Virus record (IMG/VR): IMGVR_UViG_2695420718_000006
Reading direction: 5' to 3' (one strand)
Origin: a virus
Lineage: Duplodnaviria; Heunggongvirae; Uroviricota; Caudoviricetes
DNA: 9,648 bases
The position numbers and the translations under genes were made by a program. The first letter of the stretch is position 1. Each line of letters opens with the position of its first letter. Below the pieces are notes generated by a model. That model searched no databases. It saw nothing but the letters and a program-made list of their open reading frames with translations, and was not told the DNA's origin. Of the stretch, positions 4 to 9,452 are shown piece after piece.

Positions 4-4946
<4,943 letters not shown>

Positions 4947-4972
<26 letters not shown>

Positions 4973-5135
4973 TCAGCAACCCCGGTATCAGTTCATCCAG
5001 CGCGGCTGCTTTGTTCATGGCTTTGATGATATCCCGTTTCAGGAAATCAACATGTCGGTTTTCCAGTTCCGGAAAACGCCGCTGCACCGACAGGGGGATC
5101 CCGTCGAGAATACTGGCAATTTCACCTGCGATCCG
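4947..5135 (-). pseudogene. Orphan 3' fragment of the terminase small subunit gene Nu1 (last ~62 codons, no native start)
   Basis: Sequence identical to the 3' end of the intact Nu1 at 6365-6553. Translation SRIAGEIASILDGIPLSVQRRFPELENRHVDFLKRDIIKAMNKAAALDELIPGLLSEYIEQSG equals the Nu1 C-terminus. The upstream junction at 5135/5137 removes the rest of the gene; the track's 64-aa ORF starts on a junction-spanning GTG. Confidence 0.8.
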
Positions 5136-6390
5136 ACTCACCCGGCCCCCATCCCCATACGCGCATTTCGTAGCGGTCCAGCTGGGAGTCGATACCGGCG
5201 GTCAGGTAAGCCACACGGTCAGGAACGGGCGCTGAATAATGCTCTTTCCGCTCTGCCATCACTTCAGCATCCGGACGTTCGCCAATTTTCGCCTCCCACG
5301 TCTCACCGAGCGTGGTGTTTACGAAGGTTTTACGTTTTCCCGTATCCCCTTTCGTTTTCATCCAGTCTTTGACAATCTGCACCCAGGTGGTGAACGGGCT
5401 GTACGCTGTCCAGATGTGAAAGGTCACACTGTCAGGTGGCTCAATCTCTTCACCGGATGACGAAAACCAGAGAATGCCATCACGGGTCCAGATCCCGGTC
5501 TTTTCGCAGATATAACGGGCATCAGTAAAGTCCAGCTCCTGCTGGCGGATGACGCAGGCATTATGCTCGCAGAGATAAAACACGCTGGAGGGGTCATCCG
5601 GCGTCCATTTGAGGCCAAACGGCGTCTCTTTGTCGCCAAATTTAAGATACTGCTCCTCCCCGCAATGCGGGCAGGCAACATGAAAACGCATAAAATGCGG
5701 GGATTCACTGGCTGCACGCTCAATCTGACAGGTGCCTCTCACTTTGGGCGTGGAGCCACGGATGGACTTTGGCCAGACCGAGCCTTCAATACGTTTGTCG
5801 CCAAGGAACGTCGGAGAGCCTTCCTGTTCAATATCCTCATCAAAGGCAGCAAGTTCATCATAACCCGCCACATCCACTGACTTTTCACGGTAGTTTTTTG
5901 CCGCTTTACCGCCCAGGCACCAGAAGCCACGACCATTGGAAAAACGCTTCATAGTGAGCGTGTTATCCCGGTGCTTTTTGCCATACCACGGAGCCAGCGC
6001 CAGCAGCGACGGAATATCGCGGATGGTCGGCTCAACGTGGGTTTTCATAAAGTTCTCGGCATCACCATCCGTCGGCAACCAGATAAGGGTGTTGCGCTGC
6101 TTATGCTCTATAAAGTAGGCATAAACACCCAGCAGCATTTTGGAATAACCGACACGGGCAGACTTCACCACATTCACCTCACGGATGTAGTCGCTGCCCA
6201 TCGCATTCATGATGGCCCGCTGAAAGGGCAGTGTTTCCCAGCGCCCTTCCTGGTATGCGGATTCTTTCGGGAGATAGTAATTAGCATCCGCCCATTCAAC
6301 GGCGGTCTGTGGCTCCGGCCTGAACAGTGAGCGAAGCCCGGCGCGGACAAAATGCCGCAGCCTGTTAACCTGACTGTTCGATATATTCAC
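5122..6390 (-). pseudogene. Truncated terminase large subunit copy (A residues 1-418 plus 4 junction-derived residues SDRR, then stop)
   Basis: 422-aa ORF identical to the gpA N-terminus through VWGWGPGE, then diverges at the 5136 junction. Start overlaps the end of the intact Nu1 as in lambda. One T-to-S difference at residue 151 versus the other copies. Confidence 0.85.
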
Positions 6391-6910
6391 TCAGCAACCC
6401 CGGTATCAGTTCATCCAGCGCGGCTGCTTTGTTCATGGCTTTGATGATATCCCGTTTCAGGAAATCAACATGTCGGTTTTCCAGTTCCGGAAAACGCCGC
6501 TGCACCGACAGGGGGATCCCGTCGAGAATACTGGCAATTTCACCTGCGATCCGCGACAACACGAAAGTACAGAATGCGGTTTCCACCACTTCAGCGGAGT
6601 CTCTGGCATTCTTCAGTTCCTGTGCGTCGGCCTGCGCACGCGTAAGTCGATGGCGTTCGTACTCAATAGTCCCTGGCTGGAGATCTGCCTCGCTGGCCTG
6701 CCGCAGTTCTTCAACCTCCCGGCGCAGCTTTTCGTTCTCAATTTCAGCATCCCTTTCGGCATACCATTTTATGACGGCGGCAGAGTCATAAAGCACCTCA
6801 TTACCCTTGCCACCGCCTCGCAGAACGGGCATTCCCTGTTCCTGCCAGTTCTGAATGGTACGGATACTCGCACCGAAAATGTCAGCCAGCTGCTTTTTGT
6901 TGACTTCCAT
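6365..6910 (-). CDS. Nu1: Terminase small subunit Nu1, 181 aa
   Basis: Product MEVNKKQLADIFGASIRTIQNWQEQGMPVLRGGGKGNEVLYDSAAVIKWYAERD is recognised as lambda gpNu1 (winged-HTH N-terminus) at the native 181-aa length. It lies immediately downstream of cos, as in lambda. Confidence 0.95.
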   Translation of the reverse strand: MEVNKKQLADIFGASIRTIQNWQEQGMPVLRGGGKGNEVLYDSAAVIKWYAERDAEIENEKLRREVEELRQASEADLQPGTIEYERHRLTRAQADAQELKNARDSAEVVETAFCTFVLSRIAGEIASILDGIPLSVQRRFPELENRHVDFLKRDIIKAMNKAAALDELIPGLLSEYIEQSG

Positions 6911-7135
6911 TGTTCATTCCACGGACAAAAACAGAGAAAGGAAACGACAGAGGCCAAAAAGCTCGCTTTCAGCACCTGTCGTTTCCTTTCTTTTCAGGGG
7001 GTATTTTAAATAAAAACATTAAGTTACGACGAAGAAGAACGGAAACACCTTAAACCGGAAAATTTTCATAAATAGCGAAAACCCGCGAGGTCGCCGCCCC
7101 GTAACCTGTCGGATCGCCGGAAAGGACCCGCAAAA
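6911..7135 (-). other. cos: Lambda-type cos site: cosB (Nu1-binding R elements and IHF region) 6911-7087, cosN 7088-7099, cosQ-side right-end sequence 7100-7135
   Basis: Reverse complement of 6911-7099 reads GGGCGGCGACCTCGCGGGTTTTCGCTATTTATGAAAATTTTCCGGTTTAAGG...GAAAGGAAACGACAGGTGCTGAAAGCGAG..., matching the recalled lambda left end with only a few substitutions. Reverse complement of 7100-7131 matches the recalled lambda right end GCGGGTCCTTTCCGGCGATCCGACAGGTTACG. Confidence 0.9.
7088..7099 (-). other. cosN 12-nt cohesive-end sequence (AGGTCGCCGCCC on plus strand, i.e. GGGCGGCGACCT)
   Basis: Exact 12-mer of the lambda cohesive end, flanked by lambda-like left-end and right-end sequence. Confidence 0.9.
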
Positions 7136-7150
7136 TGATAATAATTATCA
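7136..7150. promoter_or_regulatory. Perfect 7-1-7 inverted repeat TGATAATaATTATCA; candidate Fur box or operator
   Basis: Arms TGATAAT (7136-7142) and ATTATCA (7144-7150) are exact reverse complements around a single centre base; the palindrome extends to 17 bp (7135-7151). It matches the 7-1-7 form of the Fur-box consensus. It sits directly next to cosQ and about 150 bp upstream of the plus-strand ORF at 7299. Confidence 0.45.
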
Positions 7151-7298
7151 TCTGCATGTCACAACGTGCATCTACGCCATCAAACCACGTCAAATAATCA
7201 ATTATGACGCAGGTATCATATTAATTGATCTGCATCAACTTAACGTAAAAACAACTTCAGACAATACAAATCAGCGACACTAAATACGGGACAACCTC

Positions 7299-7532
7299 AT
7301 GTCAACGAAGAACAGAACCCGCAGAACAACAATCCGCAACATCCGCTTTCCTAACCAAATGATTGAACAAATTAACATCGCTCTTGATCAAAAAGGGTAC
7401 GGGAATTTCTCAGCCTGGGTCATTGAAGCCTGCCGCCGGAGACTGTGCTCAGAAAAAAGAGTTTCTCCTGAAGCAAACAAAGAAAAGAGTGACATTACTG
7501 AATTGCTCAGAAAACAGATCAGACCAGATTGA
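7299..7532 (+). CDS. Small ribbon-helix-helix (Arc/MetJ/CopG-like) DNA-binding protein, 77 aa (hypothetical)
   Basis: Basic N-terminal tail RTRRTT, then a beta-strand-like alternating segment TIRNIRF, helix PNQMIEQINIALDQ, a G-x-S/T/N-type turn (GYGNFS) and a second helix AWVIEACRRRL, the canonical RHH layout. Lower GC than neighbouring phage genes. No strong Shine-Dalgarno sequence, so the start is uncertain. Confidence 0.55.
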   Translation: MSTKNRTRRTTIRNIRFPNQMIEQINIALDQKGYGNFSAWVIEACRRRLCSEKRVSPEANKEKSDITELLRKQIRPD

Positions 7533-7588
7533 AGCAATTTAGATAATCGTGCAGACTACGCCCCTCATATCACATGGAAGGTACTACA

Positions 7589-7999
7589 ATGGCTCAGGTT
7601 GCCATTTTTAAACAAATATTCGATAAAGTGCGAAATAATTTAAACTATCACTGGTTTTATTCTGAACTAAAACGTCACAATGTCTCACATTACATTTACT
7701 ATTTAGCTACAGAGAATATTCATCTTGTTCTTGAAAACGATAATACGGTTTTAATAAAAGGACAGGGTAAGGTTGTAAATGTAAGATTTTCAAAAAATAA
7801 ATGCCTTATAGAAGCCACCTTAAAAGGATTCAAATCAGGAGAGTTATCATTTTACGAATACAGGAAAAATCTTGCTACAGCAGGGGTTTTCAGATGGATT
7901 ACAAATATCCACGAAAACAAAAGGTATTACTATACCTTTGATAATTCATTACTCTTTACTGAGAACATTCAGAACACTACACAAATATTTCCGCACTAA
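7589..7999 (+). CDS. Hypothetical cargo protein, 136 aa from the SD-supported ATG (the track ORF begins 5 codons earlier at 7574)
   Basis: GGAAGG Shine-Dalgarno 7 nt upstream of ATG 7589. Very AT-rich (roughly 30% GC by eye), Tyr/Asn/Lys-rich product with no transmembrane segment. Length and position resemble, from memory, the ybcV (DUF1398) locus of the E. coli DLP12 prophage; this is not verifiable without alignment. Confidence 0.6.
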
Positions 8000-8256
8000 A
8001 TCATAACGTCCGGTTTCTTCCGTGCCAGAACCGGACTCGCTGGCATGATGAAATATGTGTACCCGGTAACCCCGGTGTGCATCGTTTTTGATTATTCCCG
8101 CACACTCGCGCAGAAGGAGTTCCCCGTCGGGCTACGGTCTCTGTTAATACGGGAATACGGCGACGATACAGCGCATGATGTGTCAGGCTTGAATACCTTT
8201 ATCCTTTAAAAGGGATATCAGTTAAGTTATCCCGTGTAGGGTATAAACCATTATCA

Positions 8257-8287
8257 AAGCCACTCTGTAGGAAGTGGCTTTTGTAAT
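8257..8287 (+). terminator. Candidate intrinsic terminator for the plus-strand cargo transcript
   Basis: 8-bp perfect stem AAGCCACT / AGTGGCTT with an 8-nt loop, followed by TTTTGTAAT. Located about 260 bp downstream of the 136-aa ORF. Confidence 0.4.
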
Positions 8288-8290
8288 GGC

Positions 8291-8316
8291 AATAAAAAGC
8301 CCCGCGAATGCGAGGC
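8291..8316 (-). terminator. Candidate intrinsic terminator for minus-strand (lysis cassette) transcription
   Basis: On the minus strand: GCCUCGC-AUUC-GCGGGGC (7-bp stem with one G-U wobble) followed by UUUUUAUU. On the plus strand the same position is a C/A mismatch, so it is strand-specific. About 175 bp downstream of the Rz stop. Confidence 0.5.
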
Positions 8317-8490
8317 TAAATCCTGGTATTTGTAATGACTGGCTCTTATCTCAACGCAGCCCCTTACCGCGCGCAAAATGCTCAATATCAAGCATCAGCA
8401 ATGAGATGTTTAATCTGGATTCACTCCAGAAGTGAGCACCACCCTGTCTACAGAGCCAGATGTGAAGGATGATGAGTAAAATTATCGCTA

Positions 8491-8958
8491 TCATCGAAGG
8501 CATTGCGTCCTGATGTATTCCTGAAGCGTTCTCAGTGCTGTTTGGTCGCGGATAATTCCGTCCCGGACACCGAGAACGTTTCGTCCAGCAACTGGAGAGA
8601 GTTCGACGGTGGCATCATTGCCCATGCCGGAGGCGCTGGAGGTTTCGGCTGAGGATGGCACAGGGCATTTTCCTTTGACGAGCACCCGACCACCATTATC
8701 AAGCTTGCGCCGAAGAGCATCATTTTCAGCTTTCGCATCAGCTAACTCCTTCGTGTATTTATCATCGAGTGCATCAGCATCACGCTGGCGCTGCTGCATG
8801 TCAGTAATGGTGGCGTTCGCCTTCTCCAGTTCACTGGCCTTGTTATCGCGCTGTTCTTTGTAGGCGATTGCATTATCACGGTAATGATTAACAGCCCATG
8901 ACAGGCAGACGATGATGCAGATAACCAGAGCGGAGATAATCGCGGTTACCCTGCTCAT
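8491..8958 (-). CDS. Rz: Rz i-spanin (inner-membrane spanin), about 155 aa
   Basis: From the ATG at 8958 the product begins [30 protein letters not shown], matching the recalled lambda Rz N-terminus (N-terminal TMD plus coiled-coil-like body). Rz start ATG overlaps the R stop TGA (ATGA). The C-terminal half diverges from lambda. The track ORF begins 4 codons upstream. Confidence 0.85.
8532..8738 (-). CDS. Rz1: Rz1 o-spanin (outer-membrane lipoprotein), 68 aa, embedded in Rz in another frame
   Basis: [21 protein letters not shown] has a signal peptide and lipobox (VVGC), followed by a proline-rich segment [16 protein letters not shown]. It lies entirely within Rz in a different frame, the hallmark Rz/Rz1 architecture. 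It resembles lambda Rz1 (MLKLKMML...). Confidence 0.8.
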
Positions 8959-9452
8959 TGTTGCCCCCACAAACAGACCTCACGCTCAATCTCACGACGA
9001 GTCATCAGGCCTTTCCATTGCTTACCGCCAGCGTATGCCCAGCGACGTAGCTGGTCACATGCGCCCTTGATATCGCCCTGGTTTATTTTGCGAAGAAGAG
9101 TAGATGTTCTGAAATTGCCTGCGCCCACGTTATAGACGAACGAGTAAAGAGCGCCGCGCGTTGTTTCCGGTATATCGACTTTGATGTACGGGTTAATTTG
9201 TCTGGCTACCGTGGCAAGGTCTTTATTCAGGAGGGCTTTGCATTCTGCTTCGGTATACGTTTTACCGGGAATGATGTCTTTTCCTGTATGCCCGTGACAT
9301 ACAGTCCATACGCCAACGATATCTTTGTATGGTATGTAGCTGACACCTTCCAGACCATCGTTACCACTTGGGCCAGTGATTAACACTGATGCTATAGCAA
9401 TTGCTCCGCCACCAATAGCAGCAGCAACGGCTTTTCGTAATGATGGAGGCAT
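8955..9452 (-). CDS. R: SAR endolysin (phage P21 R21-type lysozyme), 165 aa
   Basis: N-terminal Gly/Ala-rich weakly hydrophobic signal-anchor-release segment [20 protein letters not shown]; catalytic-triad positions E35, D44, T50 present ([22 protein letters not shown]). The whole sequence matches recalled R21. Start ATG overlaps the upstream holin stop (TAATG). Confidence 0.9.

Follow-up and report, generated by a model that had tools for sequence, protein, structure and literature searches.

Two neighbouring accessory genes between cos and the lysis genes of a lambda-like prophage: a probable Qin-type ynfO-ydfO cassette

What are the two small genes that separate cos from the lysis genes of a lambda-like prophage and read against their neighbours, and do they work as a pair? 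The question is raised by a stretch of DNA of 9,648 nucleotides (IMG/VR record IMGVR_UViG_2695420718_000006, analysed at its full length and referred to here as the window), which is the late region of such a prophage written on the minus strand. The original prediction, made from the sequence, described a two-gene island in which a gene for a 77-residue ribbon-helix-helix (RHH) protein is followed by a gene for a 136-residue hypothetical protein, and likened it to toxin-antitoxin, anti-defence or lysogenic-conversion modules. In our view the locus is probably a Qin-type ynfO-ydfO cassette, that is, two neighbouring accessory genes of which one, YlcI/YnfO, is locked in position and the other, encoding a DUF1398 protein, is mobile cargo.

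The coordinates of the features discussed are collected in Table 1. The island is present as described, with ORFs of 77 and 136 codons between cos and the lysis genes. Both read from the plus strand and every late gene (portal, W, terminase, Nu1, Rz and R) from the minus strand, so that transcription opposite to the late operon, which had been part of the prediction, is borne out. The gap between the ORFs had been given as 57 bp; it measures 56 nt in the window (7533-7588), the value of 57 nt being that of the Qin prophage of Escherichia coli K-12. The ydfO-like gene is strongly AT-rich (GC 0.311) and the ynfO-like gene moderately so (0.432), compared with 0.529 for Nu1, 0.527 for Rz and 0.588 for the portal gene, in keeping with the AT-richness relative to the flanks that had been reported. 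The pair occupies the slot in which lambda carries bor, and homologues of both genes are found at this place in HK630, a lambda-type phage, which agrees with the moron position assigned to the island. Location between Rz and cos, antisense orientation to the late operon and a GC content of 0.31-0.43 where the flanks have 0.52-0.59 together mark these as moron-type accessory genes.

Table 1. Positions, strands and details of the features of the window
Feature	Position	Strand	Details
Portal gene	4-1605	-	ORF list
W	1602-1808	-	ORF list
Terminase block, rearranged (triplication)	1805-6390	-	
Nu1	6365-6910	-	ORF list
Cohesive-end sequence, taken as cosN	7088-7099		AGGTCGCCGCCC, reverse complement of lambda GGGCGGCGACCT
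cosQ-like heptamer	7123-7129		AGGACCC, reverse complement of GGGTCCT; kept in alignment
Sigma-70 promoter-like site	7135-7162	-	GTGACA, 16-nt spacer, TATCAT; 10/12 matches
Perfect 7-1-7 Fur box	7136-7150		TGATAATAATTATCA
8-bp perfect inverted repeat	7197-7229		ATCAATTA, 17-nt gap, TAATTGAT; flanks TATCAT 7214-7219 (+)
ynfO-like gene, YlcI/YnfO family (DUF3950)	7299-7532	+	77 aa, family HMMs
Degenerate PdhR-box-like sequence	7513-7529		AACAGATCAGACCAGAT, 3' end of ynfO
ydfO-like gene, DUF1398	7589-7999	+	136 aa, soluble basic protein
Hairpin	8008-8036		8-bp stem GTCCGGTT/AACCGGAC, 13-nt loop, just 3' of the ydfO stop
Rz	8491-8970	-	ORF list
R	8955-9452	-	ORF list

Both ORFs are real genes rather than chance reading frames, as indicated by purifying selection. 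Comparison of YlcI codons 1-50 with a diverged allele gave a dN/dS of 0.06, with 23 of the 32 differences at third positions, and the values for the DUF1398 gene are 0.2-0.35. The same gene pair is annotated by PGAP in 99.9%-identical genomes. An alternative ATG at 7574, upstream of that at 7589, would yield a DUF1398 protein of 141 residues. The 136-residue form is favoured because a GGAAGG lies 7 nt 5' of the ATG at 7589 and no Shine-Dalgarno sequence precedes that at 7574; PGAP places the start at 7589 in a 99.9%-identical genome.

Profile-HMM searches, which had been proposed as a check on the original prediction, placed both proteins in families at scores above the curated cut-offs. The 77-residue protein matches Pfam DUF3950 (PF13132; 70.7 bits, cut-off 25, E 9e-20), NCBIfam YlcI_YnfO_N (NF041551; 33.2 bits, cut-off 30) and phrog_949 (E 2e-31). 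The 136-residue protein matches Pfam DUF1398 (PF07166; 147.1 bits, cut-off 22, E 3e-43) over profile positions 1-119 of 119 and is 76% identical to E. coli YdfO, the NMR structure of which is deposited as PDB entry 2HH8 (E 3e-67) and stems from structural genomics; the two share the same fold. The identity of the families and of the slot is near certain.

Both proteins are basic, the DUF1398 protein with a pI of 9.4, and have neither a signal peptide nor a transmembrane segment. YnfO (pI 10.4) consists of an N-domain (residues ~12-50) that is nearly invariant across the family and a variable, helical C-terminal tail (residues 51-77). The N-domain is plausibly a ribbon-helix-helix, an assignment that falls short of statistical significance; the nearest known systems on this side are the Arc/Mnt/CopG repressors and RHH antitoxins. 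In the DUF1398 fold one unit is duplicated internally, (alpha-alpha-beta-beta-beta) x 2, which gives a pseudo-dimeric alpha/beta protein, and a search for its structural neighbours returned none that was informative. Its conserved residues are of the structural type and none is catalytic, which makes a binding or adaptor protein more likely than an enzyme. Matches of the region to the defence models of PADLOC-DB v2 were at chance level (E >= 0.016), without a hit to any defence family. Both ynfO and ydfO were listed as uncharacterised in a 2024 survey of the y-ome (PMC11551758). They are among the commonest uncharacterised genes of E. coli, and both are present in lambda-type phage genomes.

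The locus had been tentatively equated with the ylcI/ybcV-type locus of the DLP12 prophage, known but functionally uncharacterised. This holds at the family level, but the closer counterpart is ynfO (b4533)-ydfO (b1549) of the K-12 Qin prophage, where the order, lengths (77 and 136 aa) and strands are the same and the pair is likewise divergent from nohA/Nu1. From cos up to the point where ynfO begins, the window shares ~96% identity with Qin, Fur box included, and 96% with DLP12. Within ynfO itself only five of 234 nucleotide positions differ from Qin, whereas the DUF1398 allele of the window is only ~76-80% identical to Qin YdfO. A further difference is that gnsB-cspI and other cargo lie between ydfO and the lysis genes in Qin, while in the window Rz comes directly next.

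The gene order is ylcI, ybcW (on the opposite strand), ybcV and borD in DLP12, and in HK630 it is a ylcI ORF (64 aa, intact and unannotated), lambdap79, lambdap78 (DUF1398) and bor. In DLP12 and lambda/HK630 both families of the window thus fill the same Rz-cos slot and have the same orientation towards the late genes, with the Fur box and upstream region as in the window. Unlike the window, they have the pair split by the opposite-strand gene ybcW/lambdap79, and their YlcI of 64 residues ends in a different tail and lacks that of the YnfO type. The window has neither lambdap79 nor bor, which follows the DUF1398 gene in DLP12 and lambda. According to a 2026 preprint, the Vulcan NADase defence is set off by lambdap79, and escapers of lambda delete this gene, likely via recombination with Qin (bioRxiv 10.64898/2026.09.04.749371). 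Recombination between lambda and Qin with loss of lambdap79 would give the layout seen in the window.

The cassette is also widespread. Among 5426 complete E. coli genomes, 1013 cover at least 80% of a 1.6-kb block containing it and 4909 have some match to the block, and phage Kati, an inducible lambdoid phage of the Qin type, is 99.4% identical over its length. We note that the locus is already known, being annotated in K-12, with a deposited structure for one member and a published Fur site next to it; as a discovery, a locus whose K-12 counterpart is annotated and one of whose members has been solved is an ordinary one.

Whether the two genes belong together was addressed through their distribution. 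Co-occurrence, which had been named as a check on the pairing, was found in the clade of the window but not beyond it. In 80 viral contigs with the 77-residue type of YnfO, all near-identical relatives, a DUF1398 gene lies 56-59 nt downstream in 79, but in the 66-residue subtype of YlcI it is absent from all 80 loci. One of the latter (L159) has an HNH-TerS-TerL packaging module on one side and Rz and the gene for a lipoprotein with a TonB_C domain on the other, the lipoprotein occupying the place of DUF1398. In the 62-residue subtype the next gene is an unrelated one of 82 codons, followed by a KilA-N gene. From the other direction, no YlcI was found within 4 kb of any full-length DUF1398 relative at 34-53% identity, a set made up of the YcgX type (Escherichia, Shigella) and of proteins from Citrobacter, Klebsiella, Kluyvera, Raoultella, Pseudocitrobacter and Salmonella diarizonae. 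In metagenomic sequences, two DUF1398 relatives stand alone on the chromosome, outside prophages and surrounded by housekeeping genes.

The two genes also differ in how they vary. Within the 77-residue YnfO loci the DUF1398 proteins are 75-100% identical and the YnfO proteins at least 95%, and the comparison with Qin, in which ydfO is ~20% diverged and ynfO hardly changed, has the same character; this places a mosaic joint near or inside the 3' end of ynfO. Across every subtype examined YlcI adjoins, divergently, the first packaging gene (Nu1 or HNH), and the gene downstream of it varies. The content of the Rz-cos slot differs among related phages. It is well supported that ynfO and ydfO, each distributed independently of the other, are not an obligate pair, and the simplest reading of the locus is a small resident gene with exchangeable cargo rather than a two-component system.

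The sites that surround the genes bear on how each may be controlled. We take the cohesive-end sequence of Table 1 to be cosN, and the neighbouring heptamer to be cosQ, by analogy with lambda. The cosN sequence is identical in Qin, DLP12 and HK630 and delimits the accessory slot on the left. The Fur box lies 7 bp beyond cosQ, and its first base, 163 bp upstream of the ynfO ATG, is the point at which the original prediction had begun the island. It is the one exact match in the window (0.02 expected by chance) and is kept in Qin, DLP12 and HK630, where only the central base varies. The box conforms to the 7-1-7 Fur consensus, and the homologous Qin site was shifted with Fur in vitro by Chen et al. 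(2007; PMC2189734). Their nohA Fur site (predicted at 22.3 bits and verified by gel shift; the DLP12 copy is given 25.3 bits) has the same offset of 233 bp as that between the centre of the window Fur box and the Nu1 ATG, and it is also described as selected in vivo by Vassinova and Kozyrev (PMC2189734).

The sigma-70 promoter-like site is a match to the consensus only, the total of such sites in the region being no higher than expected from shuffled sequence. It aims leftward across cos at Nu1, and the Fur box overlaps its -10 element and spacer. On the plus strand no sigma-70 promoter upstream of 7299 passed the scan, and the sole -10-like element, the hexamer TATCAT at 7214-7219 found by manual inspection, has a poor -35 and reads TATCGT in K-12; the Fur box is ~65-80 bp upstream of it. 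Given the overlap with the leftward site and the distance from the plus-strand hexamer, the Fur box more probably controls Nu1 than ynfO.

The inverted repeat that flanks the plus-strand hexamer would, judged from its sequence and position, be a candidate promoter or operator of ynfO. No matching motif was found upstream of ylcI in HNH-type loci, the upstream regions of which are without inverted repeats, and these regions have no k-mers of at least 8 in common with those of the lambda type. An autoregulatory role for YnfO finds no support, since the plus-strand scan yielded no promoter and the lambda-type and HNH-type regions share no operator-like motif.

The degenerate PdhR-box-like sequence at the 3' end of ynfO is homologous to a PdhR site identified by gSELEX in Qin, AAcaGGTcagACCAgaT, which has GGT where the window has GAT (PMC7660256). 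The same motif is located upstream of the DUF1398 gene in HK630, a hint that the DUF1398 gene moves together with a control region of its own. For experiments, concrete starting points are the verified Fur site linked to this slot, the PdhR site and lambdap79 as the trigger of Vulcan.

We propose the following account of the cassette. The Rz-cos slot would be non-essential. YlcI/YnfO would be a small, very basic and probably RHH-type DNA-binding protein fixed beside the first packaging gene, which is Nu1 in lambda-type phages and the HNH endonuclease in phages of the HNH-TerS-TerL type. DUF1398 (YdfO/YbcV) would be exchangeable cargo that brings its own upstream block, including the PdhR-box-like site, and encodes a soluble cytoplasmic protein, most likely of the binding or adaptor kind. 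Expression of both genes would take place in the lysogen, from the prophage, and respond to host regulators and stress, and their products may act on the physiology or gene expression of the lysogen and not on virion assembly or lysis; to judge from their homologues, both would be dispensable for lytic growth. The Fur box would govern the leftward promoter reading across cos into Nu1 and not ynfO. As to biochemical function, the combination of a regulator with a binding protein is a tentative reading, to which we would give somewhat less than an even chance.

Published data on expression come from the K-12 orthologues and not from the element in the window. Under ionic liquid, ydfO was raised 12-fold by microarray and 116-fold by qPCR (PMC4077768). 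In a pdhR mutant ybcV was down 10-fold, and both K-12 loci have PdhR gSELEX sites (PMC7660256). A ylcI transcript was detected that overlaps convergently with ybcW (PMC12288877), and ybcV was among the genes most strongly down under copper stress (PMC13618251). CRISPRi knock-down of lambdap78, the DUF1398 gene of lambda, was neutral, and the bor-cos region of lambda is listed as non-essential (PMC10695390).

Four other explanations were weighed. In the first, YlcI/YnfO regulates the packaging or late region, or incoming related phages, and DUF1398 is unrelated cargo. The constancy with which YlcI stands directly divergent from Nu1 or HNH, in two unrelated packaging systems and all subtypes examined, argues for such a role, as do the almost invariant N-domain (omega 0.06), the leftward promoter-like site between ynfO and Nu1 and the reported occurrence of YlcI in capsid-forming PICIs of Enterobacter (PMC13612085). 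However, the lambda-type and HNH-type neighbourhoods have no operator-like sequence in common; the constant position may only mirror a favoured recombination slot, and the lambda bor-cos region is dispensable according to the listing cited above. No packaging phenotype is known. On balance we consider this explanation unlikely. A bolder version is less likely still: YlcI/YnfO would be a position-locked DNA-binding regulator at the point where lysis and packaging genes meet, in two or more unrelated packaging modules as well as in capsid-forming PICIs. There it would govern whether transcription enters the packaging genes, or hinder related incoming phages, and in the 77-residue Qin type the helical tail could also have taken on the docking of the orphan-fold DUF1398 protein, creating a new regulator-effector pair.

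Under the second explanation the cassette is an iron-responsive lysogenic-conversion operon, with the Fur box repressing ynfO-ydfO so that iron starvation turns both genes on. The perfect box lies 148 bp upstream of the ynfO ATG, and binding in vitro and selection in vivo are on record for its homologue, in those passages of PMC2189734 that assign the site to nohA and do not mention ynfO. The b-number of ynfO, b4533, belongs to a later series, and the gene was presumably not yet annotated when the nohA site was described. The geometry of the region speaks against this arrangement, because the box overlaps the leftward -10 element and spacer and is well removed from the -10-like element of the plus strand. 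HNH-type YlcI loci are without the box. Copper stress raised iron-acquisition genes, yet ybcV was strongly down (PMC13618251), and ynfO and ydfO are absent from the main text of a study of the Fur regulon (PMC4676285). These points make an iron-responsive operon distinctly improbable.

The third explanation is a type II toxin-antitoxin or abortive-infection-like pair in which YnfO is the RHH antitoxin and autorepressor and its tail neutralises a DUF1398 toxin. The order of the genes is that of such a module, a small RHH-like gene first and its partner second on the same strand, and the association of the tail-bearing YnfO with DUF1398 in 79 of 80 loci is what an antitoxin-like partner would show. 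This correlation between tail and partner is trivial, however, because the mosaic joint lies inside the 3' end of ynfO. The independent occurrence of the two families makes the toxin-antitoxin reading unlikely: all 80 loci of the 66-residue YlcI subtype lack DUF1398, the DUF1398 relatives at up to 53% identity stand alone wherever their loci were examined, and in DLP12 and lambda a third gene on the opposite strand splits the pair and YlcI lacks the YnfO tail. Moreover, ybcV appears to be under its own PdhR-dependent control, the 56-nt spacer offers no translational coupling, YdfO was obtained in a yield sufficient for an NMR structure (2HH8), PADLOC returned no matches and knock-down of lambdap78 was neutral (PMC10695390). 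We regard a toxin-antitoxin or other two-component system as very unlikely, and the independent distribution steers further work from a toxin-antitoxin assay towards what YlcI binds and what DUF1398 binds.

The last explanation, that the DUF1398 protein is a structural protein of the virion or envelope, derives from the label 'head protein' on PHROG 413 and from GenBank/nr names such as 'putative envelope protein', and is extremely unlikely for a soluble protein (as its NMR structure indicates) that has no signal peptide or transmembrane segment, shows no similarity to capsid proteins when the structures are compared, is encoded antisense to the late operon, is non-essential as lambdap78 in lambda (PMC10695390) and has some relatives that are solitary on chromosomes outside prophages.

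Several smaller points complete the description of the Qin-type cassette and its families. A protein of 233 residues containing both domains (P0014) was considered as a Rosetta-stone fusion and rejected, being the two Qin ORFs, which are in frame, with a single TGA read as W; the ynfO and ydfO ORFs of the window, unlike those of Qin, are out of frame. Matches to DUF1398 in Pseudomonas, the Bacillus group, Flavobacterium and other unrelated taxa were also set aside; these outliers are attributed to contamination with lambda control DNA because they lie on contigs of 3.5 kb or 48.5 kb with lambda-identical sequence. YdfO has been said to give resistance to oxidative stress (PMC4077768), a claim that we reject as a mix-up of names, since the paper cited for it concerns YfdO of CPS-53 (PMC3105296). 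Rfam and tRNA scans of the region gave nothing at threshold. The hairpin just beyond the ydfO stop has no T-run on the plus strand and is absent from the terminator calls; the cassette may end at this point.

Comparison of the YlcI genes of lambdoid elements indicates that the family occupies a recurrent position beside the packaging genes. The lambda-type phage HK630 carries an intact YlcI ORF between cos and lambdap79 (listed with the other features in the table), for which the HK630 record holds no annotation; its product agrees at both its N-terminal residues and its C-terminal tail with the short DLP12/lambda-type YlcI proteins obtained by homology search. In prophages with an HNH-TerS-TerL packaging module (L159 4001-4674; L238 707-1156), only ~40 bp separate the start of YlcI from the HNH gene, which is divergent from it. 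The cargo which follows YlcI differs between these prophages: one type carries a TonB_C-domain lipoprotein, whereas another has an 82-aa protein of unknown function together with a KilA-N gene. The slot close to cos or to the packaging genes is therefore a variable cargo site, of which YlcI is the constant member.

The apparent host range of these genes requires some care. Contigs of 3.5 kb or 48.5 kb containing the lambda ylcI-lambdap79-lambdap78 region are found in assemblies of many unrelated taxa, including Pseudomonas, Brevibacillus, Flavobacterium, Kitasatospora and Bradyrhizobium (genome-contig matches L094-L130). These are almost certainly contamination by lambda control DNA, and they exaggerate the apparent host range of both the YlcI and the DUF1398 families.

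On the cos side of the slot, the window contains a perfect Fur box overlapping a leftward promoter-like site. The box is homologous to the published Fur site of nohA, which was verified by gel shift (PMC2189734), and HK630 also carries it. Taken together, these observations imply that in lambdoid phages an iron-responsive putative promoter reads into the packaging genes.

Features located in the window and in phage HK630
Feature	Position	Strand	Remarks
Terminase repeat, copy 1	2477-2776		
Terminase repeat, copy 2	3719-4018		
Terminase repeat, copy 3	5137-5436		
Fused A ORF, 1055 aa	1805-4972		Product of terminase repeats
Nu1 C-terminal fragment, 64 aa	4947-5141		Product of terminase repeats
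A copy, truncated, 422 aa	5122-6390		Product of terminase repeats
Promoter-like site	7135-7162	-	Directed across cos toward Nu1
Perfect Fur box	7136-7150		Overlaps promoter-like site
ORF, 54 aa	8045-8209		No family match
Terminator-like hairpin with T-run	8298-8317	- (late strand)	~170 bp downstream of Rz
ORF, 50 aa	8351-8503	-	No family match
YlcI ORF, intact, 64 aa	HK630 (L005) 389-583		Between cos and lambdap79

In the Qin prophage of E. coli K-12 (L004 4757-5458), ynfO and ydfO share a reading frame and are separated by one TGA, whereas in the window the two corresponding ORFs are out of frame because the spacer is 56 nt. A cluster of 761 member sequences (P0014) describes a 233-aa 'fusion' in which the Qin-type TGA is read as tryptophan, most likely through an error of gene calling. 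The spacer (7533-7588) also distinguishes the window from lambda, as its Qin-type layout lacks lambdap79. According to a 2026 preprint (bioRxiv 10.64898/2026.09.04.749371), it is lambdap79 that triggers the Vulcan NADase defence system, and phages with the Qin-type layout would be predicted to evade that trigger.

We note that overexpression of YdfO has been said to raise resistance to oxidative stress (PMC4077768, citing Wang et al. 2010). The cited study (PMC3105296) names YfdO, of the CPS-53 prophage, and does not contain the term 'ydfO'.

At positions 1805-6910, the window contains three copies of the 5' part of the terminase large-subunit gene, 98-100% identical to one another and spaced by 1242 and 1418 bp, compared with a single copy in the best-matching complete E. 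coli genomes. The triplication is either a true tandem rearrangement or an assembly artefact.

Downstream of the ydfO-like gene, at positions 8000-8490, the window lacks bor. Positions 8000-8210 are homologous to the region upstream of bor in lambda and cover the spot of a promoter annotated in HK630. The terminator-like hairpin lies within a stretch of the same strand (8228-8419, minus) that Rfam matches to STnc560, an Hfq-binding sRNA, at 20.5 bits, below the gathering score of 55.
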